Shown piece by piece: positions 2,328-52,942 of a DNA stretch of 64,000 nucleotides. The stretch is from positions 7,663 to 71,662 of the forward strand of contig CALXRS010000005.1 in assembly GCA_944390915.1 (NCBI GenBank). Direction: 5' to 3'. Each line of letters opens with the position of its first letter. Positions within the stretch are counted from its first letter, which is position 1. This stretch comes from an uncultured Alphaproteobacteria bacterium. Its GTDB lineage: Bacteria > Pseudomonadota > Alphaproteobacteria > RF32 > CAG-239. The notes beneath the pieces were generated by a model, which saw only the letters and a list, made by a program, of their open reading frames with translations, was not told where the DNA came from and searched no databases. The translations under genes and the position numbers were made by a program.

Positions 2328-2367
2328 GGAAAAACACCGATAACCGCCGGTTGTCCGGCGGTTATCG
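2328..2367 (-). terminator. Rho-independent terminator of the giant gene
   Basis: A 13-bp stem CGATAACCGCCGG/CCGGCGGTTATCG with loop TTGT. On the minus strand it is followed by TGTTTTTC, about 90 nt after the stop at 2456. Confidence 0.55.
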
Positions 2368-2455: not shown

Positions 2456-5400
2456 TCATCTGCCCCTGGCACTTTTTATGGCCTCATTATACATTTGTTG
2501 GTTAACCTTGTGCTGAGCCTTGGCTTCCGCAATTTGGACTTTACTATCTTCTTTGACGGCCGTTTCGGCAACCTTGTCACCCTCTACGGCATCTAACGCT
2601 ATCTCCTTATCCGCATTTATTTGTTTTACATCATTCCGATATTCAGCAGTTTCCAATTGTCGTCCGTTTCTTAAAGCTTTTATTCTGGCTTGATCCTCCT
2701 GTCTTTGCAGTTGTTCAGTTTCTCTTTCCTCCTGTCTTTGCAGCCTTGCAGCCGCCTTTGCTGCTTTCTCGGTCTCTCTGTCATCCCGTTTTTGCTGTTG
2801 TTCAGCTTCCTTTACTTCATCCTGCAGAGCCTTGTCTTCGGCTTTTTTGTCTGCCTCGGCTTGGTCACGGGCATTCATTTCTTCGTTCTGAGTTTTTTGC
2901 AGCTCTCGCCTTTCTTCTCTGTGTTTTGCATTCAGTTCCCTGCGACTTGGCACGTCGTTCTCTTTTTCGCTCTCCAAATCGCCGTTTTCACCACGGGTCA
3001 GTCCCAATTTTTCCATATCCTGATTGTGGTTCTCCATAAAAGCTTTTTCGCCGTCGGTCAGTTCGCGATCTGCGCCGGCCAGAGAAGCGTATACAGCCTC
3101 GGCTTGGGAAATTGTACGCGCTATGTCCATGCTTTCTTTTGAGGATAAGCCCTCGTTGCCTTCTGCACCGCGTACGGCTTTCAGAATATCCGTATCAATT
3201 TTCACTTTCGGGTTGTTACCATATTCGATTTCGCCATTTTCGTCAATTTTATACGAAAGTTTGGTGCCGCCGCCTTTGATTGTGGTCATGTCGTCGGCAT
3301 CCATTTCGGTTCCCGTCACGCCTTCGTTACCGACATTCTGTTGTTCTTTGTAAGAGGTTTCGTAATCGTCTTTGCGCGTGAGGTTGCCGTCTTCGTCATA
3401 TTCAAAACCTTTGTCGTTCAGCTGTTGGATAAGGTCATCCCGCAGCTTGATTTCTTCTTCGCTCAGCGGGTGACCGTCGGCCTCCTGCATGTTCAAGGAT
3501 TTTATGTTGACATGGAGTTCATTAATCTTATGGGCTTCCCACTCCATGTTTCTTTCCAAATCTTCGCCCGTGCGGCCGGAAAAACGACCGTCAGCCGTTT
3601 CCCATTCTCCCGTTTCATGGTTCCATGTTGTGGGACCGTTAACTTCCAGATCATTTTTGGATATCAGCTCGCCCCCGTCTATAGCCTCCTGCATAGCCTG
3701 AGAAAAATAGTAGCGGCTGTCGTGCACTTCTTCCTGCGCCTGGGGTTCGGGGTGTTCCTGAGTCTGTTCCGCGCCCGTTTTCTCCGCGCCCGTTTGTTCC
3801 TGAGTCTGTTCCGCGCCCGTTTTCTCCGTGCCCGTTTGTTCCTGAGCCTGTTCCGCGCCCGTTTTCTCCGCGCCCGTTTGTTCCTGAGTCTGTTCCGCGC
3901 CCGTTTGCTCCTGCCCCGAAAGATTCGCCTGCGTTTGGCTTTCTGTGTCGCGCGTCAGGCCATATTTTTCCATATTTTGGTCGTGCGCTTCCATAAACCT
4001 TTTTTCGGGGTCCGTCAAATCACGGTTTTCGGCTTCTTTCTGCAGGTGTTTATAGATGGCTTCTTCTTGGGTCAGTTCGTTGGCTTTCATTACCTGACCG
4101 AAGCTGTCGCCGTCTTCTTCAAGGTTGGCGCTTTGGATGGCGTTAAGGATGTTTGTATCCATCTGAACCCGGCCATCGAGGACGGCCAATTGGTAACCTT
4201 CGCCCTCGCTAGATGCCGTGATTACGTAACGTCCGTTGAAGCCGTTTTCATTTATGGATACCGGTTCAATGCCGTCGGTGTTGGACAAATCTTGGTCGAC
4301 GATTTCACGTTTGGCGGCTTCCTCGACGGCAGACTGAAAGTCGTCCACTTCGCTGGTCGACCGTTGGTCGCCGTTAATTTCCGTAACCGTGTGCCTCAGC
4401 CCTTCATCGGTCATTTCGCTGCGGATGACGGTTGAGTTGCCTTCGCCCTGATTGACGGTAAATTCTCTGGCCGTCATATTGCCGTTTTCGTCATAGGTAT
4501 AGACAAGTTCCGCCGGCTTGCCGTTGATGGTGCCTTTACCGACTTCCTCATAACCGCCGCCTTCCAGTTCATGCCGCTCAAACTTTTCCGCTTCGGAATC
4601 CTGAGAAGAAGCCTCTTGGTCATTCGCCTCGGTTCTTCCGTCAGCCGTTTGCTCCTGAGTTTGCTCCGCGCCCGTTTGCTCCTGAGTCTGCTCCGCGCCC
4701 GTTTGCTCCTGAGTTTGCTCCGCGCCCGTTTGTTCCTGAGTCTGCTCCGTGCCCGTTTGCTCCTGAGTTTGCTCCGTGCCCGTTTGCATATCATTTAGGG
4801 AAGATGTCCGATCATCGGCAAAAGCCCTTGCTGTACTTGTTTGATCGGCTGCAAATTCGTCGGCATCCTGTCTGCGTGTTTCGGCAAATTCCTCGGCATC
4901 TCGTTGCATGTTATTCAGAACTTCTTCTCTCTCGGCCATGAAATCCTTAGCGGCAGCTTCTCTCTCGGCCATGAAATCCTTAGCGGCAGCCTCTCTCTCG
5001 GCCATGAAATCCTGAGCGGCAGCCTCTCTCTCAGCCATGAAATCCTGAGCGGCAGCCTCTCTCTCGGTCATGAAATCCTGAGCGTCAGCCTCTCTCTCGG
5101 CCATGAAATCCTGAGCGGCAGCCTCTCTCTCAGCCATGAAATCCTGAGCGTTAGCTTCCAGTTCGCCTGTAAATTCTTCCATTGTTTTATTATAATTGTC
5201 GAAAAATTCCCGCTCGCCGGGCGACAGCTCTTCGCCAGCTGCCAGCCTGTCTACCAGACCCTGATACACCCCTTGCTGAATTTCTTCCGGGGTAAGCGTT
5301 TGCGAATCGGTCAATTGATCGGGGTGGACAATGATGGAGCCGTCATCACCGACGGAATAGGCTGATGTATCCGGTGCTATTTCCGCCGTTACTTCCGGTG

Positions 5401-7468
5401 CTTCTTGCGTAACCGGCTCCTGAGTAACCGGCTCCTGGGTAATCGGCTCTTGCGTAACCGGCTCCTGAGTAACCGGCTCTTGGGTAACCGGCTCTTGGGT
5501 AACCGGCTCCTGAGTAACCGGCTCCCTGGTCGCGGTTTCCAGTTCCTGCGCGATCGGTTCCTGCGTCGGCGCCTCAATTTTTTGTTCGGCTTGCTCATGG
5601 CCGGTTATGCCCAGATTGTCAAAATACGAACCGTCGGCAATAGAGTTCAGGTCGTTATTGACCGCGCCAAGCATCAACCCTGCACCGGCAACTTCGGCAA
5701 GAACCGAACTTCCCTGTTTGTAAAAGTCTGTCCAGGCCTTTTTGTCCAGTCCTTTGGTGGCCCACAAGGTTTGGGCGGCTTTTTTGGTTCCCACGGCTTT
5801 GGCCTTCAGCCCCTCCCAATAGTCCTTCTGCATCACTTTTTGCGCGGTTTTGCCGAGGGCGTAAGCCTTACCGACGACCGGCAGCGACCGCCAGAAAATT
5901 GCCGAATGCGCTATCAGGGCGTTTCTGGTTGTTTTGTCGCGGAAAACGTCTTTGATGGAAACTTTGCCGACGGCGCGGTTCATGGCGCGTATCCGGTTAT
6001 ATTCTTCCTCGCTGACCGCCCGGGCGCCGGCTTTTTTCTGATATTCCTTAAAATTCAGGGTGCGGCGGACATCGGTGTGTTGGACGACGTTGTTAAACAT
6101 TTCTTCGCTCACCGGCGCCATTTCCGGACGATCTTTCTTTTTGTTGGCCTCGGATTTGGAGGCTACGTATTTTTTGTATTCGTCATACGACTTGCCGGCA
6201 AACATGCGCGCCGTTTCAAAATCTTCACGGTTGAACGAGTTTTTTTTCTGAAAATCTTTCAGTTTGTTGAATTCTTCTTCGCTGACATGGTTGGATCTGT
6301 GCTTGTCAAGATAGGAGGTATAATCGCCGTATGCCTGCACCTGGTCATAGTCATGCCGGTTGAGCTTGCTGTCTTTGTTTTGTTCCTGCCAGCGGTTGAA
6401 CCCAAATTCGGCCGCCTGATCTTTGTAGATTTCGCGAAAAGCGGCATAGTCCTTAAAACCCTGTACGTCGTTATAGATGGCGCGGGCGGAAAGAACGGAA
6501 CGATAGCCCATGTAAAGAGGGTTGCCGGCCAACATGTAGTTGGCTGCCAGTCCGAGCAGCGGATTGTTTTGTTCAAACTTCTGAATGCGATCCATAACCT
6601 TGCCCAGACTGTGCAGGTTTTCGCGGAGAGCCGCTTTGATGGAGCCGCGTTTTTCCATAAAGTCTGCAATCGGCTGCATGTTGGTATGCGCGGTTGTCTG
6701 TCGGGCAAGGCTTTTGATGTTTTCAAGCTTGGCGGCCGGTTCTTCCTTTTTGGGGCGGATGTCGAGCATTTTGAAAATATCTGCTTCGCTTTTGCCCTGG
6801 CTGACGGCCTCCTGAATGTCGGCTATGCGGGAAATATGTTTGTCGGCCTTGATTTTGTTGTAGTCATTGCCCGTCCACATGGCATAAACCGAGTTGTAAT
6901 ACTCGGTTTCGATACGGATGCGTTCGGCCTCGTGGGCTTCGCGCAGGTTGTCGAGGGTGATGGGTTCGTTGCCGGAGGCCAGACGGCGGCAGGCGCTCAT
7001 GTCCAAGGCGGCCTGCATGTCTTTGTTGTCGGTGTCGGCAACGCGGATGTCGGTTTTCTTCCATTCCGCGCTTTCCTGATATTTTACGCCTTCTTCGGAT
7101 TGGAGAAGTTCATAGGCTTCGTTAAAACGCCTCAGCTCTTCTTCGGGCGCGGGAGCATAAAAATCTTCCCAGTGATAGGGATCCGTCATCATGGCTTCTT
7201 CGGATTCGCTTGCGGGCGTCTTGTTGTCGGCGGCGGGAGCGGCCGAAGCTTCTTCCGTTTGGCCGGCGTTTGCTTCAACTTCGGCGGCGTTGCGGACGGC
7301 CGATTCTGCATGAAAACGTTCCACAAAACCGTTCAAAAAGCCGGATTCGGCACACATGTCGCTCAGCGATTTGCCCGCCCTGTCCGCGGCTGCGACCATG
7401 TCCGCATAAATTTCCGGCGCTTCCGTCTGAATTTGTTTTAAAATATCACCATAACCGTTATCAGCCAT
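2456..7468 (-). CDS. giant acidic repeat-containing protein, 1670 aa, family unknown
   Basis: An uninterrupted 5-kb ORF. ATG at 7468 with GGAGA 8 nt upstream. All tandem repeats are multiples of 3 nt and in frame. I saw no signal peptide and no recognisable catalytic motif. Confidence 0.85.
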   Translation of the reverse strand: MADNGYGDILKQIQTEAPEIYADMVAAADRAGKSLSDMCAESGFLNGFVERFHAESAVRNAAEVEANAGQTEEASAAPAADNKTPASESEEAMMTDPYHWEDFYAPAPEEELRRFNEAYELLQSEEGVKYQESAEWKKTDIRVADTDNKDMQAALDMSACRRLASGNEPITLDNLREAHEAERIRIETEYYNSVYAMWTGNDYNKIKADKHISRIADIQEAVSQGKSEADIFKMLDIRPKKEEPAAKLENIKSLARQTTAHTNMQPIADFMEKRGSIKAALRENLHSLGKVMDRIQKFEQNNPLLGLAANYMLAGNPLYMGYRSVLSARAIYNDVQGFKDYAAFREIYKDQAAEFGFNRWQEQNKDSKLNRHDYDQVQAYGDYTSYLDKHRSNHVSEEEFNKLKDFQKKNSFNREDFETARMFAGKSYDEYKKYVASKSEANKKKDRPEMAPVSEEMFNNVVQHTDVRRTLNFKEYQKKAGARAVSEEEYNRIRAMNRAVGKVSIKDVFRDKTTRNALIAHSAIFWRSLPVVGKAYALGKTAQKVMQKDYWEGLKAKAVGTKKAAQTLWATKGLDKKAWTDFYKQGSSVLAEVAGAGLMLGAVNNDLNSIADGSYFDNLGITGHEQAEQKIEAPTQEPIAQELETATREPVTQEPVTQEPVTQEPVTQEPVTQEPITQEPVTQEPVTQEAPEVTAEIAPDTSAYSVGDDGSIIVHPDQLTDSQTLTPEEIQQGVYQGLVDRLAAGEELSPGEREFFDNYNKTMEEFTGELEANAQDFMAEREAAAQDFMAEREADAQDFMTEREAAAQDFMAEREAAAQDFMAEREAAAKDFMAEREAAAKDFMAEREEVLNNMQRDAEEFAETRRQDADEFAADQTSTARAFADDRTSSLNDMQTGTEQTQEQTGTEQTQEQTGAEQTQEQTGAEQTQEQTGAEQTQEQTADGRTEANDQEASSQDSEAEKFERHELEGGGYEEVGKGTINGKPAELVYTYDENGNMTAREFTVNQGEGNSTVIRSEMTDEGLRHTVTEINGDQRSTSEVDDFQSAVEEAAKREIVDQDLSNTDGIEPVSINENGFNGRYVITASSEGEGYQLAVLDGRVQMDTNILNAIQSANLEEDGDSFGQVMKANELTQEEAIYKHLQKEAENRDLTDPEKRFMEAHDQNMEKYGLTRDTESQTQANLSGQEQTGAEQTQEQTGAEKTGAEQAQEQTGTEKTGAEQTQEQTGAEKTGAEQTQEHPEPQAQEEVHDSRYYFSQAMQEAIDGGELISKNDLEVNGPTTWNHETGEWETADGRFSGRTGEDLERNMEWEAHKINELHVNIKSLNMQEADGHPLSEEEIKLRDDLIQQLNDKGFEYDEDGNLTRKDDYETSYKEQQNVGNEGVTGTEMDADDMTTIKGGGTKLSYKIDENGEIEYGNNPKVKIDTDILKAVRGAEGNEGLSSKESMDIARTISQAEAVYASLAGADRELTDGEKAFMENHNQDMEKLGLTRGENGDLESEKENDVPSRRELNAKHREERRELQKTQNEEMNARDQAEADKKAEDKALQDEVKEAEQQQKRDDRETEKAAKAAARLQRQEERETEQLQRQEDQARIKALRNGRQLETAEYRNDVKQINADKEIALDAVEGDKVAETAVKEDSKVQIAEAKAQHKVNQQMYNEAIKSARGR
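3754..3921 (-). repeat. in-frame tandem repeat, 42-bp period, about 4 units (TGAEKTGAEQTQEQ)
   Basis: GTTCCTGAG recurs at 3754, 3796, 3838 and 3880. Confidence 0.95.
4645..4788 (-). repeat. in-frame tandem repeat, 27-bp period, about 5 units (TG[A/T]EQTQEQ)
   Basis: CCGTTTG recurs at 4645, 4672, 4699, 4726, 4753 and 4780. Confidence 0.95.
4926..5156 (-). repeat. in-frame tandem repeat, 33-bp period, 7 units (AEREAAAQDFM)
   Basis: G[G/A][C/T]CATGAAATCC recurs at 4934, 4967, 5000, 5033, 5066, 5099 and 5132. Confidence 0.95.
5404..5523 (-). repeat. in-frame tandem repeat, 15-bp period, 8 units (EPVTQ)
   Basis: CYTGNGTAAYCGGCT units are contiguous from 5404. A ninth, degenerate unit follows. 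Confidence 0.95.
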
Positions 7469-7501
7469 AATTGTTCTCCGTATAAAACATACCTAACTCA
7501 C

Positions 7502-7530
7502 ATATTACTATAAGCCACGTTCCGAGTCAA
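7502..7530 (-). promoter_or_regulatory. sigma70-like promoter of the giant gene (TTGACT-17-TAATAT)
   Basis: The minus strand reads TTGACTcggaacgtggcttatagTAATAT. The -10 element ends about 34 nt upstream of the ATG. Confidence 0.5.
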
Positions 7531-7624
7531 CGCAATTTTGTCATATAATGCTATATTTTGTCAAAAAAGGAGAAAGTCGGCGAACAGGCGTTTAAAGCCC
7601 GGAAAGCATAGGGCAAAACACTTT

Positions 7625-20605: not shown

Positions 20606-20802
20606 GATGCCCTCCGTTTTTTTGTTTGATAACTCATAATAACATGTTTTTTGAGCAAATTTTATGACGTTTTTATGACATCGGCGTCTTGTCGCCGGCG
20701 GCGGGCGTATTTGTCTTATTTTTGTAATTGAACATTAAAACAATTTGGTTTAGTTTGTGAAAACGGGATTAAAAATTTTTTTTGAATAACGGGAAAAACA
20801 TT

Positions 20803-21663
20803 ATGACAAAAGTCACCTGGAAACCGGGAACGATGGAATATCCGCTGCCGCCCGTCATGGTCAGCTGCGGAAGCATGGACAAACCAAACGTGATGACGGC
20901 CGCCTGGACCGGCATCGTCAGCAGCGAGCCGCCGATGACTTATGTTTCCATCAGGCCTTCCCGCTATTCCAACGAAATTATCCGCCAGAGCGGGGAATTT
21001 GTCATCAACCTGACAACCCTGCCGCTTATTACCGCCGCCGATTTCTGCGGCGTCAAATCCGGTCGGGACATTGACAAATTCAAGGAGATGAACCTGACCG
21101 CCATGCCCTGCGCAAAGGTTTCCTGCCCGCAGATTGCCGAAAGTCCTGTTTCCCTTGAATGCAAGGTGGTCAACATTGCCAACTACGGCAGCCACGATAT
21201 GTTTTTGGCCGAAATCGTCGCCGTTGACGTCGACGACAAATATCTCGATCAGGACGGCAAACTGTGGCTGGAAAAAGCCGGGCTCATTGCCTATGCGCAC
21301 AACTACTATTATACTTTGGGCAGAAACGTGGGCTTTTTCGGGTTTTCCGTCTGCCGCAGCGCGCTCAAAGCCCGCGAAAGAATGAAAAACGTGGTGGTGG
21401 AAGTGCGGGAATCCAAAGTCTCCCTGCCGGCGACAGGTAACAAATTTGCCCGCAAAAAATGGAATGCCGGAAACGGCGGCGGCAAAAAACGCGGCGGAAA
21501 ATTCAGCCATGGACGCGACAAGTTTGAAAAAAACCGGCAAATACATTTTGACGATTCCGCCTCCGGTAAGGGCAAAAAAAAGAACGATGCGAAGCGCCCG
21601 TCTGCGGAAAATAACTTTAACCGTCGTCCGCGGCCGGTGATGGCCAAAAAACGCGGTGCCTGA
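20803..21663 (+). CDS. flavin reductase-like protein with a ~100-aa Lys/Arg/Gly-rich C-terminal tail
   Basis: The N-terminal ~185 aa has the flavin reductase fold (YPLPPVMVSCG...VMTAAWTG). The tail reads KFARKKWNAGNGGGKKRGGKFSHGRDKFEKN...RRPRPVMAKKRGA. I prefer the ATG at 20803 over the TTG at 20782. Confidence 0.8.
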   Translation: MTKVTWKPGTMEYPLPPVMVSCGSMDKPNVMTAAWTGIVSSEPPMTYVSIRPSRYSNEIIRQSGEFVINLTTLPLITAADFCGVKSGRDIDKFKEMNLTAMPCAKVSCPQIAESPVSLECKVVNIANYGSHDMFLAEIVAVDVDDKYLDQDGKLWLEKAGLIAYAHNYYYTLGRNVGFFGFSVCRSALKARERMKNVVVEVRESKVSLPATGNKFARKKWNAGNGGGKKRGGKFSHGRDKFEKNRQIHFDDSASGKGKKKNDAKRPSAENNFNRRPRPVMAKKRGA

Positions 21664-21712
21664 TTTTGCCTGCGGCCGGCAAAACCGCACCGCCGGCGGC
21701 CGAAAAAAATTT

Positions 21713-25186: not shown

Positions 25187-26359
25187 TTAATGCAACATCA
25201 GATAAATAATAAAATCGCGTGTCCACTGCAGGGCTTCCACCGGCACCGAGCGACCGAAAGCAAGCATGTCGGTGTCGGTAATGACGGCCAGATAATAGCG
25301 GTCTGCCGCCGGATCGTATACCACGCGGATGTCGCGGATGCGGTCGAGCGGGGCATATTTCTTGCGGGAGACAAAAAGGATTTTGTGAACCAAAATCACT
25401 CGTCCGTCTTTGATGACGATTTTGTCTTTCTTAAACATCAGGCCGATGAAAAAGACGGCCAAGGCCACGGCGAGCGTAAAAAACAGACCTGTTTGGAGAG
25501 CCGAGCCGACAAGGCGGGAAATTTGCTCGTAGTTGAGGGCGGCAATTGCCAGCAGCAAGAGATAAAACCCCAGCCAGAACACGCCGAGCAGGCTGAAAAT
25601 GCTCCAGAATATGCGTTGCGGCTTAATAATCGTGCGATCCGATTTTTTTATGAGAACGATTTCTTCGGGGGGGGGCGGCGTATTTTCGTAAACCGCCAAC
25701 ATGTCTTTGTCGGCCAGATATTCTTTGAGGTTTTTATCGAGCTCGGCCGGTTCTTTTATGTTTGCGCCTTCGTCGGTATCGAGGATGGTCGGCATGCCGA
25801 GACGTCTGGCGTAGTAATACCATATTTGATAAATGCCTGTGCCGTCGGTGGAAATATAAAGCGGAATTGTTTTTTGCGGATCGCGGTGTTCGAGTTCCAC
25901 AATATATTTGTTTTTGTTTAAGATGCCGAACTGGAAAAATTCCACCCGCAGGCGCACGCCGTTGTAGTTGCGCAAAAACTCGCGGAACAGTTCGTTTTCG
26001 CCGAACACGCCGCGAAGATCAACGGAAAATGTTTTGCCGTTGAAAAATATTTTTTTGTAACGGATATAAGAAACGACGGCGCCGATAATAATGCCGAGCC
26101 CGAGGATGATAAAAGCCGTATCCACGGCCGTATGGCTGAAAAGCGGCGGGCGAATGTCGGGATCGAGTTCATAGCCCAGACTTTCCGGATCGTACATGCC
26201 GCCGGCAAGCTCCGCCAGACCGATGACGGCCATCAAAAAACCGAGCACAATCCCTGGCATAACCACTTTAAGCGGCATCCGGTCGTCCTGTTTGGCGGGA
26301 ACTTCGTCCAGTTTTAGCTGATAATCGTAACTCAAATGCTTGGGAAGTTTTTTTCTCAT
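25187..26359 (-). CDS. hypothetical multi-pass membrane protein
   Basis: 390 aa with several hydrophobic helices. GGAGGA lies upstream of the ATG at 26359. No motif recognised. Confidence 0.6.
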   Translation of the reverse strand: MRKKLPKHLSYDYQLKLDEVPAKQDDRMPLKVVMPGIVLGFLMAVIGLAELAGGMYDPESLGYELDPDIRPPLFSHTAVDTAFIILGLGIIIGAVVSYIRYKKIFFNGKTFSVDLRGVFGENELFREFLRNYNGVRLRVEFFQFGILNKNKYIVELEHRDPQKTIPLYISTDGTGIYQIWYYYARRLGMPTILDTDEGANIKEPAELDKNLKEYLADKDMLAVYENTPPPPEEIVLIKKSDRTIIKPQRIFWSIFSLLGVFWLGFYLLLLAIAALNYEQISRLVGSALQTGLFFTLAVALAVFFIGLMFKKDKIVIKDGRVILVHKILFVSRKKYAPLDRIRDIRVVYDPAADRYYLAVITDTDMLAFGRSVPVEALQWTRDFIIYLMLH

Positions 26360-36715: not shown

Positions 36716-37633
36716 ATGGAAGAAGAAAAAAAACAAAAAGCGAAAAACCTCAGGGTCTGCGTTTCGGGCGGGCATTGCGACGGCAAAGATCCCGCTTATG
36801 TGGAAGAATGTTATAAGCTCGGGGTAAAAATTGCCAAAATGGGGTTTCGGCTCGACTACGGTTTTTCCAATTCCGGCGTGATGGGAGCGGTGGCACGCGG
36901 CGTGCTCGACAACTGGCAGGAGCGAAAAGACAAATATTACGACAACATCACCCCGATTGTCGGCGTAACCACCCGCGAATATTACGAACTCTACGAAAAA
37001 GACGATATTTTGAAACAGATCAGCGAAGTGGTGGTGGAAGATACGCTCGAAAACCGCAAGATAAAACTACTGGAGGCCGATATTGTCGTGTTTGCCCCCG
37101 GCGGGGTGGGTACGCTTGACGAGCTGGCTTATGACTGCGTGGCCATGCAGGACGGTTTTTTGAAAACCAAACCTTTTATCATGTATAACATCAACGGCTT
37201 TTTTTATCATATTCTGGAATATCTGAAAGAACTTGCTGCAAGCGGGTTTGCGTTGAGGGTGCCGTTTATCGTGGTGGACGACAGCGAAGAGCTGGAAACG
37301 GCTTTCCGTTTGCTAAGGATGCGCTACAACGACTGCGCCGACGCCGCGGAAGCCTACGCCAACGCCCGCCAGCTGGCTTATGAGCTGCCGTATTTTCTGA
37401 AAAAGAAAACCGACAGCAGCGTGCATGTGGAAGACATTTGGGCGGAAATGAAAAAAATTGAGGCTGCCGGCAGCAAAGAACAAAAACAGGTTTTGGCAAA
37501 CGAAATCGAGCAGGCCTATCTGGAAAAGGAAATTGAACGGATGTATGATCGGCTGGCCAAAACCGGTCGCGATACGGCCATCGTCAGCGACAAACTGACC
37601 CGCCTGAAACAAAGGAAGAAAAAATGGAAGTAA
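36716..37633 (+). CDS. LOG-family (TIGR00730) protein with a ~120-aa helical C-terminal extension
   Basis: PGGVGTLDEL motif. The ATG at 36716 is 3 nt after the tgt stop. The 3' end overlaps the next gene by 10 nt. Confidence 0.75.
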   Translation: MEEEKKQKAKNLRVCVSGGHCDGKDPAYVEECYKLGVKIAKMGFRLDYGFSNSGVMGAVARGVLDNWQERKDKYYDNITPIVGVTTREYYELYEKDDILKQISEVVVEDTLENRKIKLLEADIVVFAPGGVGTLDELAYDCVAMQDGFLKTKPFIMYNINGFFYHILEYLKELAASGFALRVPFIVVDDSEELETAFRLLRMRYNDCADAAEAYANARQLAYELPYFLKKKTDSSVHVEDIWAEMKKIEAAGSKEQKQVLANEIEQAYLEKEIERMYDRLAKTGRDTAIVSDKLTRLKQRKKKWK

Positions 37634-39399
37634 AGACTATTCCCGCTTCCGTCTGGTGTTTTTTATGGCGCTATTTTTCACGGCAGAAAACGTTGTTTTT
37701 TGCCCAGCTGTCGGCGATTTTGGCGGGGGAACTGCTGGTGCGGCTGTCGCTTTATTTTGCCGCGGAAATCGTTGAAGTGATCGCCGGTACGGCGGCGCGC
37801 GGCGAGATGCTGGAACAGGCCCTGCGGCTGGCGGTGATTGCCTCTGCCCTGCTGCTTGCCAAAAGCCTGTTGCAAAACACAATCTGTTTTTTGGAGGCGC
37901 GGTTTATGCCGGCCGTACTGGCCAACGTGGCCAAAGATCTGTTTTCCTACGCCCATCAGCATTCGACGGCTTTTTTTGCCGAAGAAATGGCCGGTAATAT
38001 TTCCGGCAAGGCAAAAACCATTATCGACAGCATTTATCCGATTTATTATATCCTGATATGGGGTTTTCTGGCGCCTTTGGCTGCCACGCTGATAACAATC
38101 GGTTTTGTGCTGAAGATTGATGCGACGCTGGCCGCGGTGCTGTTTATGCTTAATCTGCTGGTGGTGTTTGTTATCTATCGTCTAAGCCGGCGTATGGTGC
38201 CCTATTCGGAAAAACGGGCGCAAAAAATGTCGGAGGCAAACGGCGTGTTGGTGGACAGCATTACCAATGCGGGGGCGGTCAAAAATTTTGCCAATTACCG
38301 TTTTGAGCGCAAACATTATTTTCGTTCGATGAAGGCGGCCGCCGCGGCCGATCGGGCGGAATCGCTGAAACTCGGCAAAATATTTATATGGCAGAACCTT
38401 TTTCGGGCGCTGGTGCAAATTGTGTTTTATGCTTTGCCGGTGTGGTTTTGGTATCAGGGCAAAATTTCGGTGGCGGATTTTGTGCTGATGCAGTCGCTGA
38501 TTGCCGTTTTGAGCAACACGTTCGGCATGCTGTCGCTCAATTTTATGCAGTTTTTTAAGGTTTACGGGGGCATTCGCGACGGGTTGCGGCTGCTTTCCCG
38601 CCCGTGCGAGGTAAAAGATATTGACGGCGCGGTAAAACTGGTTGTTAAGAGCGGACGGGTGGAGTTTAGGAACATAAACTATCACTATAAGGGCGCGGCC
38701 TTTTTGTTTGAAAATTTTAATCTGACCGTCGAGGGAGGCGAAAAGGTCGGTTTGGTCGGGCGTTCGGGGTCGGGCAAATCGAGTCTGGTTAAGCTGCTGA
38801 TGCGCTATTATGACATCCAACGGGGAGAAATTGCCGTTGACGGGCAGGACATCGCCCGGGTCACTCAGGAAAGTCTGCGCCGGCAGATTGCGCTGATTCC
38901 GCAGGAACCGGGGTTGTTTAACCGCAGCATTATCGAAAATATCCGTTACGGGCGGCCGCAGGCCACGGATGAAGAAGTTTTTGACGCCGCCCGCAAAGCC
39001 TGTCTTCACGACTTTATTCTCCGCCTGCCGGAAGGCTACGGGACAAAAGTCGGCGAATGCGGGGTCATGCTTTCCGGCGGCGAACGGCAGCGGATTGCCA
39101 TTGCGCGGGCCATTTTGAAAAATGCGCCGATTTTGATTTTGGACGAGGCAACCTCGGCGCTTGACAGCGAAAGCGAAAAATATATTCAGGAATCGCTTGC
39201 CAATCTGATGGAGGGAAAAACCGTCATTGCCATTGCCCACCGGCTTTCCACCCTGCGAGAGATGGATCGGCTGGTGGTGCTAGACCGCGGGCAAATCGTC
39301 GAGCAGGGGGCGCACGCCGCGTTGCTCCGGCAAAACGGTCCTTATCGTAAATTTTATGCCCTGCAGTCCGGGGGCTTTATTGAGGAGGAAGAAAAATAG
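37624..39399 (+). CDS. ABC exporter, fused permease/ATPase (MsbA-like)
   Basis: A 6-TM N-terminal half, Walker A GRSGSGKSS, signature LSGGERQR and Walker B ILILDEATS. Confidence 0.9.
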   Translation: MEVKTIPASVWCFLWRYFSRQKTLFFAQLSAILAGELLVRLSLYFAAEIVEVIAGTAARGEMLEQALRLAVIASALLLAKSLLQNTICFLEARFMPAVLANVAKDLFSYAHQHSTAFFAEEMAGNISGKAKTIIDSIYPIYYILIWGFLAPLAATLITIGFVLKIDATLAAVLFMLNLLVVFVIYRLSRRMVPYSEKRAQKMSEANGVLVDSITNAGAVKNFANYRFERKHYFRSMKAAAAADRAESLKLGKIFIWQNLFRALVQIVFYALPVWFWYQGKISVADFVLMQSLIAVLSNTFGMLSLNFMQFFKVYGGIRDGLRLLSRPCEVKDIDGAVKLVVKSGRVEFRNINYHYKGAAFLFENFNLTVEGGEKVGLVGRSGSGKSSLVKLLMRYYDIQRGEIAVDGQDIARVTQESLRRQIALIPQEPGLFNRSIIENIRYGRPQATDEEVFDAARKACLHDFILRLPEGYGTKVGECGVMLSGGERQRIAIARAILKNAPILILDEATSALDSESEKYIQESLANLMEGKTVIAIAHRLSTLREMDRLVVLDRGQIVEQGAHAALLRQNGPYRKFYALQSGGFIEEEEK

Positions 39400-45943: not shown

Positions 45944-46054
45944 ACAATTTTAATTTAATTAATAATCCGTAATAACGGCGCCATTATAAGCCTGCGGGTC
46001 GTTTTTGTCAACCGATGTCGCCCGTCCGCGGATTGTCGGTTTTGCATGCCGGGG

Positions 46055-47380
46055 CTATGGTTGTTGCGGGCGGATGGCGTTTACCGTTTGTCGGATAAAA
46101 TTCTGATAGGTTTTGTTGCTGTCGATAATTTCCTGCGCGTGGCGGTCGGTTTCCGAGCACAGCACCGGCAGGGTGATTTCGTCGTTCAGGAATTTGCGGG
46201 CGACGGCTTCGTCAAAGTTTTCCACTTTTTCCTGTTTGTACTGGCGGACAATCAATTCGATAATGGCCGGTTTTAAGGCCATGAACTCGCTCATGATGCT
46301 TTCGTCCATCACTTTTTCCAGCTTGATGCGGAAGAATGTCCAGGCCTGCTCCATGGTCAGTCCGTAGGGCTGCAGCCGTTCGTTGATGATTTTTATTTCG
46401 GGCGCGAAATATTTGGCGTAAACCTTGGGGAAGTTTGTCATTTCATAGCCCTGTTTACGGCAAAAATCGGGGTATCCTTCCATCATCCGGTAGGTGCTGC
46501 CGAGAGCAAGCCCCAGATTTTCGTCGTTTTGTTCCGCAGGCATGCGGAGAAACAGTAGCCCGAGGTTAAGCGCCAGCCCGAGCAGAACGACGGCGATTTC
46601 CGCCTTGCCGACAAAAGCGGGCATCTCCAGTTTGCGGTTGCTTTTGCGGTCGTGAAAGTTAATGCGTTTCTGCACGGCGGCAAGCAGAAACAGCCCGACA
46701 ATCCAGGCTGCCAGATAGCCTGCCCACAACAAAGGCAAAAAATTTTGCGCGCCCGTCCACAGCAGGGGGACGACGCCGAGCGCCGCCTGCAACGGCAGCA
46801 AAACGGCATAGCCGCCGGCAAATGCGGTAAAATGTTTGCCTTCGGTTTTGCTTCGGTTCAGGTTGAGGCGGATTATTTTCATCAGCGGCCAGACAAAAAA
46901 GATGCCGAACACAATCCCCTGCCAGAAGGGGCGTATTTCTTCGTCGCGGGCGTCTTTGCGCACCGCCTGCCAGTTTTTGTACAGCCAGTAGAACTCAAAC
47001 AGCCCGCCGCTCAAAAAGGCTGCCGCCGCCAGTTGCCGCGTCGGCAGCTGATAGAAAATGACCGGTCGGCTGTAGTTGACGTTTTGGTTGCGGGCGATAA
47101 AGTTTTTGATATGTTGCAGTCGGAGCCTGTCGGCAATGAAGGCGCAAACCGTCCGCATGACGAGCAAAACCGCCGCCGCGGCCGTCCAGCTGCCGAAAGC
47201 GATGAGCGTGGTTGCCGCCAGTGCCGTGCCGAGCGCAAACCATCCGGCAAACCAGGCGTACATGCCTTTTGCCAGAAAGTAAAAAGAGTTGAAAACAAAA
47301 GCGTATGCCGAAAAACGCCGCGGCGCCGAAGCGTCTTTAAGTTCTTTCTGATAAACGGATAATTTTGTTTCTGTATGCAT
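46055..47380 (-). CDS. hypothetical membrane protein with a soluble C-terminal domain
   Basis: Several TM helices followed by a ~150-aa soluble tail. I prefer the ATG at 47380 over the TTG at 47428. Confidence 0.6.
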   Translation of the reverse strand: MHTETKLSVYQKELKDASAPRRFSAYAFVFNSFYFLAKGMYAWFAGWFALGTALAATTLIAFGSWTAAAAVLLVMRTVCAFIADRLRLQHIKNFIARNQNVNYSRPVIFYQLPTRQLAAAAFLSGGLFEFYWLYKNWQAVRKDARDEEIRPFWQGIVFGIFFVWPLMKIIRLNLNRSKTEGKHFTAFAGGYAVLLPLQAALGVVPLLWTGAQNFLPLLWAGYLAAWIVGLFLLAAVQKRINFHDRKSNRKLEMPAFVGKAEIAVVLLGLALNLGLLFLRMPAEQNDENLGLALGSTYRMMEGYPDFCRKQGYEMTNFPKVYAKYFAPEIKIINERLQPYGLTMEQAWTFFRIKLEKVMDESIMSEFMALKPAIIELIVRQYKQEKVENFDEAVARKFLNDEITLPVLCSETDRHAQEIIDSNKTYQNFIRQTVNAIRPQQP

Positions 47381-47523
47381 GGCGCCCCTCTTGTGGTCAA
47401 GGTTAACCGTTTTAGGCGTTCGGGTCAAGCGGATAAATTATTTTGTTGGCAACGAAAAATCTTGATAATAAAACAACTTCCCGCTACAGTCGGATAAAAC
47501 GGAAAACATCGGGACAAGATTAA

Positions 47524-48909
47524 ATGAACAGGAAGTTAAAATATATATTGTTTGCGGCGGTATTTGCCGGCGGCTACTGCAGCCTGTCGCTGGAACTGGC
47601 GGTCATGCGTCAGCTGAGCGGTTTTGTCGGTTCGACGGCGGTCACCGCGTCCGTTATCATCGGCGTCATTTTGGCTTTTATGTCTTTCGGCTACTGGCGC
47701 GGGTCGGTGGTTTCCGTGCGCAAAAACCGTCTTCGCCGGCATCTTGCTCCCGATTTTATCCTGATTGCCCTGATGACGGCGTTTGCCTCCTCTTACATAT
47801 TGATAGACGTATATTTTATGGCGATGAACGCTGTCGGTATCCGTTCCAACGTGGCGCAGACTTTTGTTTACTCGTTTGCCTTTTTGTCTTTTGCGCCTTA
47901 TCTGTTCGGCAAAATCACGGCCGTTCTCAGCCGCTACCTCTACCGTTTTGACCGCAACAACGCGGGGCGCATCATGGCGGTGGATACCATCGGTTCGGTG
48001 CTCGGTTCGCTTTTGACCACGCTGGTGATTATGCCCTTTGTCGGCGTTAATCACACGGTTATGCTGATTACGGCGATAGCGTTGTTTGCCGCCTGTCTGC
48101 TCGGCAGCCGCGACTATGCCGCCATGGCGGTTATTTTGCTGATGGTGTTTTTGCTCAACCGCGATTCGCTGTTGGCCGACATTTATCATATTGTCGAAAA
48201 CAACGCCGTTTCGACCATTGCCATAGAAGAAACCGACGACGGCCGCTCAAAAATCATGTTTATGAACGGCGGCGGCGCCTCCAAAGTTTCCGAAGACAGG
48301 GAACTTCGTTTCGGTTACGTTCGTTTTGTCGAGGACAATTTTATCTCTTTTTTGCCGACGTCGGGCAAGCCTAAAAAAATTCTGATAATCGGCGCCGGCG
48401 GTTTTACCATGGGGCAATATGACGATTTTAACGACTATACCTATATAGACGTCGACGCTTCCCTAAAAGAAGTGTCTGAAAAATATTTTTTGCCGGAACC
48501 CCTCGGCGATAATAAAAAATTTGTGGTGGCCGATGCCAACCAGTTCTTAAAGGAAAACGACGTGCAATATGATCTGGTGGTGCTCGACACCTATTCCAGT
48601 CAGCGGATTATTCCGCTCGACCTGGTAACGGCGGAATATTTTGCCCGTGTGCGGCGGGCGGTGGCGCCGTCGGGCATGGTGGTTATGAACATAGTGGCGT
48701 CGCCGCCCTTTTCGTCGCCGTTGTCGCAAAAGCTGGACAACACGATTCGCAGCGTGTTTACGGGCTTTTTGCAACGGCAGGTCATCGGTCGTTTCGACGC
48801 CTGGTGCCGCAGCGACTGCCCGCTTCGCAACCTGATGTATGTGTGGTACAATCTGCCGGAAGAAAACGCCGTCTATACCATCAACAAAAATTCGGCTTTT
48901 TACGACTGA
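47524..48909 (+). CDS. membrane-bound spermidine-synthase-like protein (N-terminal multi-TM domain plus aminopropyltransferase/methyltransferase fold)
   Basis: ILIIGAGGFTMG and DLVVLDTYS Rossmann motifs follow about 7 hydrophobic helices. Confidence 0.65.
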   Translation: MNRKLKYILFAAVFAGGYCSLSLELAVMRQLSGFVGSTAVTASVIIGVILAFMSFGYWRGSVVSVRKNRLRRHLAPDFILIALMTAFASSYILIDVYFMAMNAVGIRSNVAQTFVYSFAFLSFAPYLFGKITAVLSRYLYRFDRNNAGRIMAVDTIGSVLGSLLTTLVIMPFVGVNHTVMLITAIALFAACLLGSRDYAAMAVILLMVFLLNRDSLLADIYHIVENNAVSTIAIEETDDGRSKIMFMNGGGASKVSEDRELRFGYVRFVEDNFISFLPTSGKPKKILIIGAGGFTMGQYDDFNDYTYIDVDASLKEVSEKYFLPEPLGDNKKFVVADANQFLKENDVQYDLVVLDTYSSQRIIPLDLVTAEYFARVRRAVAPSGMVVMNIVASPPFSSPLSQKLDNTIRSVFTGFLQRQVIGRFDAWCRSDCPLRNLMYVWYNLPEENAVYTINKNSAFYD

Positions 48910-50145: not shown

Positions 50146-51167
50146 TTCGTTTTGCTTATCCGTTGCTGTTTCTGCTGTTGCTGTTGCCGTTTGTCGTCCG
50201 CCGTTTTTTGCCGCCGGTGCGCGGGCTGCACGGCGACGCCCTGCGTGTGCCTTTTTTGGATGATCTGGCCGGTATAAAAAGCCGCGCCGGCCGCGGGCAG
50301 AGCCTGGCCGCCGACAACGCCGCGGCCGCCAACCGCAGGGGACTGTGGCTGATGTCTTTGCTGTGGCTGTTGCTGGTAACCGCCGCCGCCCGTCCGCAAT
50401 GGCTCGGCGAGCCGGTGCAGATAAAAAATTACGGGCGGGACATTATGCTGGTTTTGGATATATCCACCTCCATGCGGGAGCCGGATTTTTCTTTGAACCG
50501 GCGACGGATAGACCGGTTGACGGCGGTTAAGCTTACGGCCGACGAATTTATCAGACGCCGCCCGAACGACCGGTTCGGACTGGTGTTGTTTGGCACAAGG
50601 GCATATCTGCAGGCGCCGATAACCTTTGACCGGCAGTCCGTGCGCGATATTTTGCGGGCAATGGACGCGGGTATGGCCGGCAACTCCACTTCCATCGGCG
50701 ACGCTCTGGGGCTGGCGCTGAAAAATCTGCGCGAAGAAAATTTGCCGGCAACCGATACTCCCAAAGACAAAATTATCATTTTGCTGACCGACGGCGAAAA
50801 CAACGACGGCAGTTTGAGCATGGCGCAGGCCGTCAACCTTGCCCAAAATGAAAAAGTGAAGGTCTATACCGTCGGCGTCGGTTCCGAAAACGCTTTTACC
50901 GATTCGCTGTTCGGTATCCGTCTGTCGGCGGGCAACGGCATTGACTAAGAGGGGTTGAAACAATTGGCGGCGGCCACCGAGGGCACCTATTTCCGCGCCG
51001 GCGACACGGCGGGACTGCAAAAAATTTATGATGCGATTGACCGTTTGGAGCCGAGCGCCGACGAAGATCAATATGTGCGCGAGGCCAAAGACGTGTTTTA
51101 CTGGCCGTTGACGGCGGCGCTGCTGACGGCGCTGGCGGCCGTGTGGCTGAAAAGGAGGGGAGCCTGA
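50142..51167 (+). pseudogene. batA: batA (VWA-domain aerotolerance protein) interrupted by an in-frame TAA at 50946-50948
   Basis: N-terminal TM helix and MIDAS motif DISTSM. The reading frame continues unchanged after the stop (ID*EGLKQLAAATEGTYFRAGD...) into the conserved C-terminus and the C-terminal TM helix. Confidence 0.75.
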
Positions 51168-52942
51168 TGGAAGCTTTTTGGGCAGATTTTCATTTTTTGC
51201 GGCCGTGGTGGCTGCTGGCGGCCGTGCTGCCGGTTGTCGGCTGCTGGCGTTTTTTGTCGGGGCTGAAAAACGTTTCCGCCTGGGAGGCCGTTTGCGACCG
51301 CAATTTGCTCGATTTTTTGCTGATAAAGGGATCTTCGCGTCAACGCCGACTGGTGGCGGGAATGTTGCTTTTCGGACTGCTGGGGGCGGTTGTCGCTCTG
51401 GCTGGGCCGAGCTGGCGCAAGCGTGAAATTCCGGTTTTTGCGCCGGAAAACCCGGTAATGTTTTTGCTGAACATGTCGTCGGATATGAACCAAACGGACG
51501 TAACGCCGAACCGTTTGGCGCGGGCAAAATATGCGTTGGCCGATTTGCTGAAATCCGTTTCGGGAGCAGAAAGCGGGCTTGTCGTTTATACCGATGAGCC
51601 GTTTTTAATCAGTCCGCTGACGGCCGACGGCAAAGTGATAGAAAACCTGTTGCCGGCCGTGGTGCCGGACATTATGCCGGAAAACGGCGACCGCCTGCAT
51701 CGGGCGCTGGATTATGCCGTCCGGCGTTTTGTCGACGCCGGTTTTAAGAAAGGCAGCATTGTCGTGCTGGCGGCCGATGCCGGACAGGATTTTAATCTGG
51801 CGATGATATCCGCCGCCGCGGCCCGTGCCAAAGGTTACCGCGTCAATGTCGTCGACGCCGGAGCAAAAGGTTCGGAAAAGCTGAAGATGATTGCCGACAG
51901 GGGCGGGGGCGTTTATGCCGGCGTTTTGTCCGGCCTGTCGCGGCTGGCGGCGGCTTTGTCCGTTGACGACGGCGGCGGGCTGAAGGAAAGTCAAAACGAA
52001 CGCGAAATATGGGAAGACGCCGGCTATTGGCTGCTGTTTATTCCGCTCGTCTGCGCCCTGTTTTTTTTCCGCCGCGGCATTTTTGTGTGGGTTTTGGCTT
52101 TTGGCCTCGGCGGCGCTCTGCCGGCGGAAGCGGGCTTTTTCTTAAACGACAATCAGGAAGGCCTGCGGGCTTTTCGCAACAACGATTTCACGACGGCGGC
52201 GCAAAAATTTGAACTGCCGGCGTGGAAAGCTTCTTCCTACTACCGTTCCGGCGATTTTGACAAGGCGTACGAGTATTTTTCCGGCAGCGACGCCGAAAGC
52301 CTCTATAATCAGGGAAACGCGTTGGCCAAAAGCGGCAAGCTTGAAGAGGCAATCAGAAAATACGAGGAGGTGTTGGCCAAAGAGCCGGGACACGAAGATG
52401 CCGAATTTAATCTGGAATACATAAAACGGCAACAGCAGCAACAACAGCAGCAACAGTCCGCCGGCGGCGGAGAAAACGACCGGAAAAACGACCGGAACCA
52501 ATCCGCGGACGGCAGCGACAACCGGTCGGGCAAAAGCGATAATAACAACGACAACGGCAACAACGAGCAGCAGGCGGTGGACGACAACCGCCCCGAACAG
52601 CAATCTCCTTCCGGCGGCAAGGGCGAGGAAGAAGACAAAAATCAGCAACAGCCTCAGGAGGCGGAATCTGCAGACGATAAGCAGGATAATGCTCAAAACG
52701 ACGGCGACGGGCAACGGCAAACGCCTTCGCCGCAGGAAAAACAAAATGAAAGCGAGCGGCAGGCCGAAGCTCAGGCGGTTGAAAACGAAGGCCAAACCGG
52801 CGACGGCGAAAAAGGCTACAGCGAAGCCGCCCAAGCGCGGGAGCAGCAGTTTCGCGACATTCCCGAAGACGCCGGCGGTTTGTTGCGGGCGTTTATCCGC
52901 AAAGAATATATGAAAAATCGGTATAAGGACGAGGGACTATGA
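51167..52942 (+). CDS. BatB/BatC-like fusion: VWA domain plus TPR repeats plus a Q/N/D/E-rich tail
   Basis: TM helices, a VWA region, TPR (YYRSGDFDKAYEYF...YNQGNALAKSGKLEEAIRKYEEVL) and a poly-Q acidic tail. The ATG overlaps the preceding stop (TGATG). Confidence 0.8.
   Translation: MEAFWADFHFLRPWWLLAAVLPVVGCWRFLSGLKNVSAWEAVCDRNLLDFLLIKGSSRQRRLVAGMLLFGLLGAVVALAGPSWRKREIPVFAPENPVMFLLNMSSDMNQTDVTPNRLARAKYALADLLKSVSGAESGLVVYTDEPFLISPLTADGKVIENLLPAVVPDIMPENGDRLHRALDYAVRRFVDAGFKKGSIVVLAADAGQDFNLAMISAAAARAKGYRVNVVDAGAKGSEKLKMIADRGGGVYAGVLSGLSRLAAALSVDDGGGLKESQNEREIWEDAGYWLLFIPLVCALFFFRRGIFVWVLAFGLGGALPAEAGFFLNDNQEGLRAFRNNDFTTAAQKFELPAWKASSYYRSGDFDKAYEYFSGSDAESLYNQGNALAKSGKLEEAIRKYEEVLAKEPGHEDAEFNLEYIKRQQQQQQQQQSAGGGENDRKNDRNQSADGSDNRSGKSDNNNDNGNNEQQAVDDNRPEQQSPSGGKGEEEDKNQQQPQEAESADDKQDNAQNDGDGQRQTPSPQEKQNESERQAEAQAVENEGQTGDGEKGYSEAAQAREQQFRDIPEDAGGLLRAFIRKEYMKNRYKDEGL

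Follow-up and report, generated by a model that had tools for sequence, protein, structure and literature searches.

A giant acidic repeat protein of uncultured gut Alphaproteobacteria and its possible role as an envelope scaffold

The giant gene and its transcription signals

The 64,000-nucleotide stretch of contig CALXRS010000005.1 analysed here (the window) comes from an uncultured alphaproteobacterium and carries, at positions 2456..7468 of its minus strand, a single unbroken open reading frame (ORF) encoding a protein of 1670 amino acids (aa). A first-pass annotation of this DNA had described the reading frame as uninterrupted with an ATG start at 7468, and the ORF list agrees. The giant gene ranks among the largest genes of these uncultured gut Alphaproteobacteria. 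Intact orthologs in six other species and dN/dS values of 0.08-0.28 mark it as a complete coding sequence and, judged from these comparisons, it is a real, expressed-looking and selectively maintained chromosomal gene of its lineage. The protein has a pI of 4.58 and just two cysteines in 1670 aa; its composition (E 13.4%, A 11.6%, Q 7.4%, D 7.2%, T 6.6%) bears out the earlier description of it as acidic and rich in E, D, Q and T. The first 30 aa have a net charge of -4, and hydrophobicity on the Kyte-Doolittle (KD) scale, for which we took about 1.6 as the classical transmembrane (TM) threshold, peaks at 0.71 within the first 70 aa (15-residue window). These values and a motif scan yielded no signal peptide, lipobox or twin-arginine (RR) motif, the first two of which had already been reported as absent.

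The gene forms its own transcription unit, as first proposed, with a phylogenetically conserved promoter and a strong terminator. A consensus scan recovered the predicted core promoter, TTGACT-17-TAATAT, at 7502..7530 (minus strand). When we aligned ten orthologous upstream regions, the -35 element TTGACT and a -10 element TAnnnT, 17 nt apart, were invariant and stood at a fixed distance from the ATG; these regions can be aligned although the proteins share merely ~45-50% identity. The ribosome-binding site GGAGA is present at 7475..7479 (minus strand), 6 nt ahead of the ATG rather than the 8 nt first given, and CGGAG is kept in most orthologs in the upstream alignment. Downstream, scanning and folding-energy calculations confirmed the predicted hairpin and T-run as an intrinsic terminator at 2328..2367 (minus strand): a 13-bp stem with 9 GC pairs and a 4-nt loop (2367-2338), followed by the U-run GUGUUUUUCC, with a folding energy of -25.3 kcal/mol (z = -5.05 vs shuffles).

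Abutting the -35 element on its upstream side, at 7536..7563 (minus strand), a motif scan and the alignment revealed two direct TGACAAAA boxes 20 bp apart. This pair occurs once in the window, against zero expected. It was found in 12 related loci, a single time per locus; in the ten of these with a mapped start codon and in L020 (another assembly of the same species) it lies ~70-100 nt upstream of the giant-gene ATG. Box 2 is invariant in the upstream-region alignment. Single TGACAAAA/TTGACAAAA boxes are ~4-fold enriched in the window and several serve as the -35 element of canonical promoter-like sites (for example at window positions 46003 and 60113), so the giant gene has three tandem -35-like boxes. 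The pair may be either a regulator site or a set of stacked, tandem -35-like promoter elements, and the enrichment of A-rich single boxes suggests an extended, A-rich -35 element in this lineage. We rejected TGACAAAA as a regulon motif, since single boxes are often -35 elements and only the pairing is gene-specific. Control through a CtrA box (TTAA-N7-TTAA) was also dropped; the orthologous upstream regions contain no conserved box.

Family, architecture and alleles

To the first-pass annotation the protein was an orphan. This view does not hold. A word-indexed search with the N-terminal 632 aa returned nine metagenomic relatives at 44-50% identity and one 100% fragment, and an exhaustive HMMER profile search of 1.84 billion protein representatives found 31 relatives only, of which a distant tier (P0014-P0032) shares profile positions ~160-340 and the overall layout. 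Scanning species-representative genomes placed the gene in 11, all from uncultured gut Alphaproteobacteria ('Azospirillum sp. 51_20' and MGYG-HGUT, UMGS and mouse MGBC metagenome-assembled genomes, MAGs), a group which we take to be the GTDB order RF32; six of the 11 hold intact orthologs of 1444-1700 aa. The 31 representative clusters, 11 species genomes, synteny among close orthologs and purifying selection together refute orphan status, and on sequence grounds the giant protein founds a previously undescribed, lineage-restricted protein family. The viral contigs and plasmids scanned held no members, the window holds no second copy, and a metagenome scan gave no additional copies from this species. 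Word-indexed searches with the C-terminal region or the module profile produced zero matches, apparently because full-length proteins are missing there, contigs breaking in the repeats. In the literature on the lineage we found nothing concerning this protein.

The neighbourhood was compared along with presence and absence, as the first-pass annotation had proposed. In nine loci the giant gene lies upstream of murI-hslV, either adjoining or with one to two genes between, the same arrangement as in the window; it occupies the same slot in L019. The upstream neighbour varies: relatives have an S66 LD-carboxypeptidase there and the window has an M20 peptidase. The window itself is ordinary chromosome, with Der, BamB, transketolase, BatA-D-like genes and ComEC. 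Beside the distant relative P0019, at L016:7106-8911, we noted a 602-aa Lys/Asp-rich ORF with one C-terminal TM-like segment. It has no Pfam match, is not a family member by hidden Markov model (HMM), and was rejected as a tandem paralog.

We derived the anatomy of the protein from ortholog conservation mapping, internal self-comparison and iterative family HMMs, with invariant residues taken from a 20-member alignment; all coordinates below are on the minus strand. The N-terminal ~600 aa are all-alpha in the AlphaFold2 (AF2) model and near-neutral overall, with the last ~200 aa strongly basic (pI 9.7-10.1, aa 401-600). This domain opens with conserved helices and no signal peptide (aa 1-60, 7289..7468; alignment, AF2 helices H7-69, charge -4), followed by a variable acidic linker of low conservation, where the predicted local distance difference test (pLDDT) is below 50 (aa 61-95, 7184..7288). 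Next comes a conserved all-alpha core (aa 96-300, 6569..7183) which profile searches, alignment and AF2 show to be common to distant relatives; R114, E182, R185, E189, Y190, N263, D293 and E299 are invariant in it, and AF2 block means over aa 110-260 are mostly 68-92, dipping to 56 at aa 201-210.

Three hydrophobic segments follow, all identified by hydropathy and alignment, with 19-residue stretches of moderate hydrophobicity at aa 304-322, 517-535 and 585-603. H1 (aa 303-325, 6494..6562) contains a central, invariant P317, and directly after it lies the most conserved block of the whole protein, GYRSVLSARAIYND. Between H1 and H2, a basic helical insert (aa 326-515, 5924..6493; alignments and AF2) is present in close orthologs and shrunk to ~50 aa in distant relatives; its AF2 block means over aa 340-490 are mostly 72-86, with 64-69 at aa 341-350 and beyond 460. 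H2 (FxRSLPVVGxxYA; aa 517-540, 5849..5920) has invariant R527 and P530. A Lys-rich stretch (aa 541-584) leads from H2 to H3 (aa 585-603, 5660..5716), a hydrophobic, Gly/Ala-rich putative membrane span with an invariant G595. The first-pass annotation saw no clear TM helix. This is right in that the hydrophobicity is moderate (KD 0.76-1.21 for H1-H3, with 1.21 for H3), but it missed three Gly/Ala-rich segments whose position is conserved family-wide and whose KD reaches 1.6 in relatives. H3 is more TM-like in distant relatives, where it reads, for instance, AAMVGGVVSLGLGAYGAHA or TIAATAAGVVFAAGMASSL and its KD reaches 1.59. In 15/15 relatives examined the net charge switches across H3, from +3 to +8 over the preceding 40 aa to -1 to -10 over the 40 aa that follow. 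H1 and H2 have no acidic flanks in any of these 15 relatives, and in nearly all of them both flanks are basic.

Past aa 603 the protein is acidic (pI 4.3) for ~1000 aa. Here the family plan, as read from sequence comparison, is one of beads on a string, with variable low-complexity linkers joining a beta-domain and one to four copies of a module. In the giant protein, the elements run in the order EPVTQ linker, module 1, 11-mer, 9-mer, domain B, module 2, 14-mer array, module 3, module 4, 150-aa charged tail and basic end. The first-pass annotation spoke of a duplicated module of ~75 aa; we find instead a module of ~120 aa in four copies, one partial and one divergent, with the consensus gf.g.Y.i.ed..g ... 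A..it..eavYqDLq.R.anGE.Ls.aE.kFm..ye..lek.GL.r..nG..v. Copy 1 retains only the helical half (aa 687-771, 5156..5410; module HMM E = 1.1e-20), copy 2 spans aa 1070-1187 (3908..4261; E = 1.3e-31), the divergent copy 3 spans aa 1256-1372 (3353..3703; E = 3.8e-07) and is mostly gapped in orthologs, and copy 4 spans aa 1394-1510 (2939..3289; E = 2.5e-32). We modelled copy 4 with AF2 (pLDDT 85.7, predicted template-modelling score 0.74), giving three strands, three helices and a terminal beta-hairpin. Most full-length family members have between one and four modules, and the module HMM found no copy in the four distant members P0019, P0020, P0021 and P0032. The beta-rich domain B (aa 970-1048, 4325..4561; domain HMM E = 5.7e-35) occurs in all close orthologs that reach that far.

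All repeat arrays first described were recovered at both the protein and the DNA level. The EP[VI]TQ x8 linker (aa 649-688, 5405..5524; 15-nt unit) came from a repeat scan and the sequence itself. It is not conserved in orthologs, and sits where relatives have 'domain X', a domain of ~100 aa past H3 that is missing here. The species-specific AEREAAAQDFM x7 array (aa 779-855, 4904..5134) has a 33-nt unit with 95% DNA identity. It is an exact 11-residue (hendecad) repeat, a periodicity that occurs in the amphipathic lipid-binding helices of apolipoproteins, perilipins and synuclein. The TG[AT]EQTQEQ x5 linker (aa 896-940, 4649..4783; repeat scan and sequence) has a 27-nt unit, and the 14-aa (42-nt) repeat linker at 3753..3911 has ~3.8 copies by Tandem Repeats Finder and sequence, counted earlier as four. 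Conservation mapping against orthologs finds neither these repeat linkers nor the charged tail outside this species; elsewhere in the family the linker repeats are NDSIVAQ (L001) or a 15-mer (L011). The tail (aa 1511-1660, 2489..2938), part of the C-terminus that looked like a coiled coil to the first-pass annotation, is 73% E/K/R/Q/D/A by composition, contains no Pro and is absent from all orthologs and hence not central to family function.

Beyond this tail, family comparison picks out a net-basic C-terminus (aa 1656-1670, 2459..2503) ending in SARGR, which the giant protein has kept despite the 150 extra residues inserted before it. The last 15 aa are net +1 to +4 in 22/22 full-length family members, and most C-termini carry [KR]-G-[RG], for example KRGREYGC, RRGRGGYGD, TRGRDRD and ARGGR. 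Possible roles for the basic end are as a signal for sorting, as a peptide that binds a partner or as an RGG-like element. Two distant relatives differ from the giant protein just past H3. Ahead of each copy of domain X, P0019 (aa 834) and P0020 (aa 571, 655 and 744) have DxDxDGxxDxxD thrombospondin-type-3-like Ca loops (DRDGDGIPDYKD x3), with a sub-threshold Pfam match to the Excalibur Ca-binding domain; the giant protein has neither these loops nor domain X.

None of these parts could be placed in a characterised family, in agreement with the first-pass annotation. Pfam, NCBIfam, PHROGs and PADLOC gave nothing above threshold for the giant protein, and neither did Pfam for seven distant relatives. 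At E <= 1, NCBIfam returned just three sub-threshold, unrelated matches and no FimV C-terminal domain, and Pfam returned no LysM. Sequence and profile searches of the PDB with the full protein, the N-domain and the module gave only noise (E >= 0.001 in low-complexity sequence, or E > 1). The best Foldseek match of the N-domain model had an E of 3, which is meaningless given the poor model (pLDDT 57.5). For the confident module model, the best Foldseek matches had an E of 0.12 in the PDB (TM-score < 0.3) and 0.6 in BFVD, all with TM-scores < 0.35; set against these two databases, the module is predicted to be a new alpha/beta fold.

The isolated YD-like motifs described earlier are present, LVYTYDENGNMT at nt 4472-4507 and FEYDEDGNLT at nt 3377-3406. 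They belong to domain B, which holds the first hairpin, and to the terminal beta-hairpin of the module, in copy 3. The YTYDENG and FEYDEDG of the giant protein resemble single YD hairpins, but the protein lacks both the shell-forming array and the core of RHS proteins: scores are below cut-off (RHS_repeat 15.1 bits vs 22; YD_repeat_2x 13.9 vs 15.8) and an RHS core regular expression (P....DP.GL, DP.GL) found no match. With only two isolated, sub-threshold hairpins in 1670 aa and no core motif, we rejected an RHS/YD-repeat protein.

Selection has been purifying throughout, and strongest at the N-terminus (pairwise dN/dS 0.08-0.12 in the N-domain and 0.19-0.28 in the remainder). As an independent check of the gene call, L020 is collinear with window 8414-3788 at 99.7% identity and without gaps, and so reproduces the repeat copy numbers independently; it has itself a stop at codon 629 (CAA to TAA), in an assembly of 3.4x coverage. 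Of the 14 differences between the window and L020, 11 are packed into 75 nt where the EPVTQ array begins (window 5513-5586, L020:2829-2902), the stop codon among them. The cluster may reflect either an assembly error at this low coverage or a short tract that is hypervariable or subject to gene conversion.

Other assemblies are also disrupted. L002, L003 and L004, independent metagenome assemblies from three samples, have an identical 1-nt deletion (CCGTATACG -> CCGTA-ACG; L002:6140-6180 vs L007:13180-13200) leading to a TAA after codon 1062, and the ortholog is cut to 1062 aa; in the MAG L007, with 97.5-99.5% protein identity to these three, the gene is intact (1473 aa). The deletion lies in no homopolymer or other repeat tract. 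We therefore rejected phase variation via homopolymer slippage, and the truncation appears to be a genuine allele in circulation. L009 has a TAA at codon 100, L013 an indel directly past H3, and L001 a truncated tandem-repeat unit. Assembly error is the probable source of the lesions in L001 and L020, since one lies in a tandem repeat and the other in the mismatch cluster at 3.4x. Taken with purifying selection on intact copies, the lesions suggest that the C-terminal part is sometimes dispensable or counter-selected.

A candidate membrane-anchored scaffold and its alternatives

The first-pass annotation offered a surface/matrix protein or a scaffold among its possible roles. Either is possible, and the giant protein is probably a scaffold, unplaceable in known families; our analysis favours a membrane-anchored one. 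From the sequence we tentatively propose, at somewhat less than an even chance, an inner-membrane protein with its N-terminus inside and its C-terminus outside (N-in/C-out), whose acidic, beads-on-a-string region acts in the periplasm as a scaffold or tether. The N-terminal domain would be cytoplasmic and lie on the inner membrane via H1 and H2, H3 would be the single N-in/C-out membrane crossing, and the acidic modular region would form a long flexible periplasmic scaffold or tether. The modules would attach to a partner in the envelope (peptidoglycan, a component of the outer membrane or a further protein), and the tether would couple this partner to whatever the conserved cytoplasmic domain contacts. 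Expression would be driven by the gene's own conserved sigma-70-type promoter, preceded by the TGACAAAA pair, and ended by its own terminator.

The positive-inside rule, together with the effect of the proton motive force, means that acidic segments are readily translocated. The non-acidic flanks of H1 and H2 and the charge inversion at H3 match what this rule predicts for two cytoplasm-side hairpins followed by an N-in/C-out span. DxDxDGxxDxxD and Excalibur Ca motifs are typical of extracytoplasmic proteins, and the Ca-type loops of the two distant relatives join the charge pattern in favouring an inner-membrane topology. BamB in the window marks the envelope as diderm. The peptidoglycan genes nearby (murI, and an S66 LD-carboxypeptidase or M20 peptidase) weakly hint at an envelope role, and a compact, confidently modelled module that recurs between flexible linkers agrees with a scaffold for multivalent binding.

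Several known proteins share this predicted layout. TolA and TonB likewise have an N-in inner-membrane anchor, a charged low-complexity spacer and a C-terminal binding domain, and the Glu-Pro/Lys-Pro repeats of TonB compare with the EPVTQ x8 linker. They differ in having a TM helix in the first ~35 residues, almost no cytoplasmic domain, TolA_C or TonB_C domains and TolQR or ExbBD partners; Pfam and NCBIfam found no TolA_C or TonB_C in the giant protein, whose first hydrophobic segment starts at aa 304. DamX and FtsN (SPOR proteins) and MapZ, bitopic markers of division or peptidoglycan, have the topology that we propose for the giant protein, with a cytoplasmic interaction domain, one span, a flexible linker and wall-binding modules, a comparison to which the neighbouring peptidoglycan genes (murI, LD-carboxypeptidase) add. 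The giant protein is 3-10 times larger than these, with multiple modules, and has no SPOR, LysM or MapZ domain and no Foldseek neighbour for its module.

A number of observations speak against this topology. H1-H3, with KD values of 0.76-1.21, fall below the classical TM threshold, and close orthologs have a conserved Glu inside H3. The protein could be soluble, with the charge switch no more than a boundary between a basic and an acidic domain. For the N-domain, AF2 gave a model of low overall confidence (pLDDT 57.5), and the Ca-loop argument comes from two distant relatives only, with motifs below Pfam thresholds. In the window a terminator separates the giant gene from murI and the upstream neighbour varies, which makes the adjacency weak.

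The sub-threshold hydrophobicity of H1-H3 keeps in play a cytoplasmic, membrane-peripheral hub like HubP/FimV or PopZ, which we consider unlikely but the main alternative. In such a hub, H1-H3 would be amphipathic or buried and at most an inner-face tether, the acidic repeat-rich region would recruit clients in the cytoplasm, and the RG/RGG-like basic tail would serve self-association or the binding of nucleic acid or acidic partners. It would account for the charges conserved in the segments (R527, and the Glu in H3 of close orthologs), and the absence of a signal peptide, the conserved basic tail with its RGRGGYGD-like sequences and the retention of modules while linkers vary are all compatible with it. 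The disorder-type, extremely acidic composition (pI 4.3 past aa 600) is also like that of known polar hubs. HubP, FimV and TspA, polar landmark proteins of Gammaproteobacteria, are very large, very acidic and anchored in the membrane, as the giant protein would be, with tandem imperfect repeats forming a long flexible multivalent scaffold, and in them, as in the present family, repeat number varies between species; the long acidic region with imperfect tandem repeats typical of FimV/HubP is found here (pI 4.30 past aa 600; four arrays).

The resemblance to HubP/FimV has limits. These proteins have an N-terminal signal, a periplasmic LysM, a TM helix, a cytoplasmic acidic region and a FimV C-terminal domain. 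The giant protein has no LysM, FimV domain or N-terminal signal; its conserved domain is N-terminal and ~600 aa long, and its orientation would be the opposite, with the acidic region outside. Pfam and NCBIfam show no homology to FimV, HubP or PopZ. A hub also sits poorly with the way the charge inverts at H3 in all relatives examined, as the positive-inside rule expects of a true span, with the clearly more hydrophobic, Gly-zipper-like H3 of distant relatives, and with the TSP3-/Excalibur-like Ca loops past H3 in P0019 and P0020.

The first-pass annotation also raised a secreted effector, and a broader version would be a secreted or cell-surface protein (an adhesin, matrix or host- or phage-facing protein) exported by a system outside the window. 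Variable repeats and recurrent truncations would then reflect diversifying or fluctuating surface selection, so this reading would explain the population-level variation: the linker repeats vary by species (EPVTQ here, NDSIVAQ in L001, a 15-mer in L011) and there are five independent truncating lesions across assemblies, one common to three samples. The protein is acidic, Cys-poor and repeat-laden, and its lineage is host-associated. Substrates of VirB/D4-type type IV secretion systems have a positively charged C-terminal tail, and the net-basic C-terminus found family-wide is similar.

We nevertheless find secretion improbable, and the effector claim found no positive evidence. The giant protein has no signal peptide, lipobox, LPXTG/sortase signal, PEP-CTERM or RHS core; regular expressions for RTX and TAAG (LapG) sites had no match, nor did Pfam report HemolysinCabind. 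Of the genes scanned, none that adjoins it is a secretion gene. The window does contain two ABC exporters (37624-39399 and 54779-56563), 30-50 kb from the giant gene, but a scan of 20 larger ORFs in these 64 kb identified neither a membrane fusion protein nor TolC as their partner. The strongly conserved 600-aa N-domain, which contains hydrophobic segments, sets the protein apart from known secretion substrates, and the syntenic, housekeeping chromosomal context and absence from viral contigs and plasmids also argue against an effector.

Finally, it is highly improbable that the gene is decaying or dispensable, or that its long frame is an artefact of assembly without current function: despite the disruptions in L001, L002-4, L009, L013 and L020 and repeats prone to assembly error, the ORF is unbroken over 5 kb here and intact in six other species, dN/dS is well below 1 in all regions, the promoter, ribosome-binding site and terminator are conserved, an independent assembly is collinear without gaps, and two of the lesions (L001, in a tandem repeat; L020, in a mismatch cluster at 3.4x) are probably errors.

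Other features of the window and significance

Elsewhere in the window, ARAGORN calls a 97-nt tRNA-Ser(GGA) at 47556-47652, inside the 5' end of a 461-aa ORF (47524..48909, plus strand); one of the two calls is probably spurious. The stretch 51143-54699 encodes first a VWA/TPR protein and then a BatD-like one and resembles a BatA-D aerotolerance-type cluster, an odd find in a gut alphaproteobacterium. Three ORFs of 324, 390 and 457 aa (20716-21690, 25187-26359 and 46055-47428) have no Pfam match at E <= 1e-5 and may be lineage-specific genes or wrong-strand calls.

Uncultured Alphaproteobacteria of this group are common in the human and mouse gut, yet their cell biology is almost undescribed. 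Here, a conserved gene under purifying selection, with its own promoter and close to cell-wall genes, encodes a protein in which every domain is unplaced. What is new is the protein family and the domain fold; the mechanism we infer. Going further, the membrane-anchored scaffold might represent a new class of envelope protein in gut Alphaproteobacteria, joining a large cytoplasmic domain, one span and a long, acidic, multivalent tether that is built from the new alpha/beta fold, lies in the periplasm or reaches the surface, and is under fluctuating selection by phage or host. This is a speculative and rather unlikely extension; such selection on the exposed part would account for repeat expansions peculiar to a species and for the repeated appearance of truncating alleles in natural populations. 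If the module stands as a new fold, it gives a fold family to characterise, and metagenomic association studies could draw on the natural truncated alleles for ready comparison. Should the topology model hold, the giant protein would be a new link between cytoplasm and envelope in a diderm bacterium.

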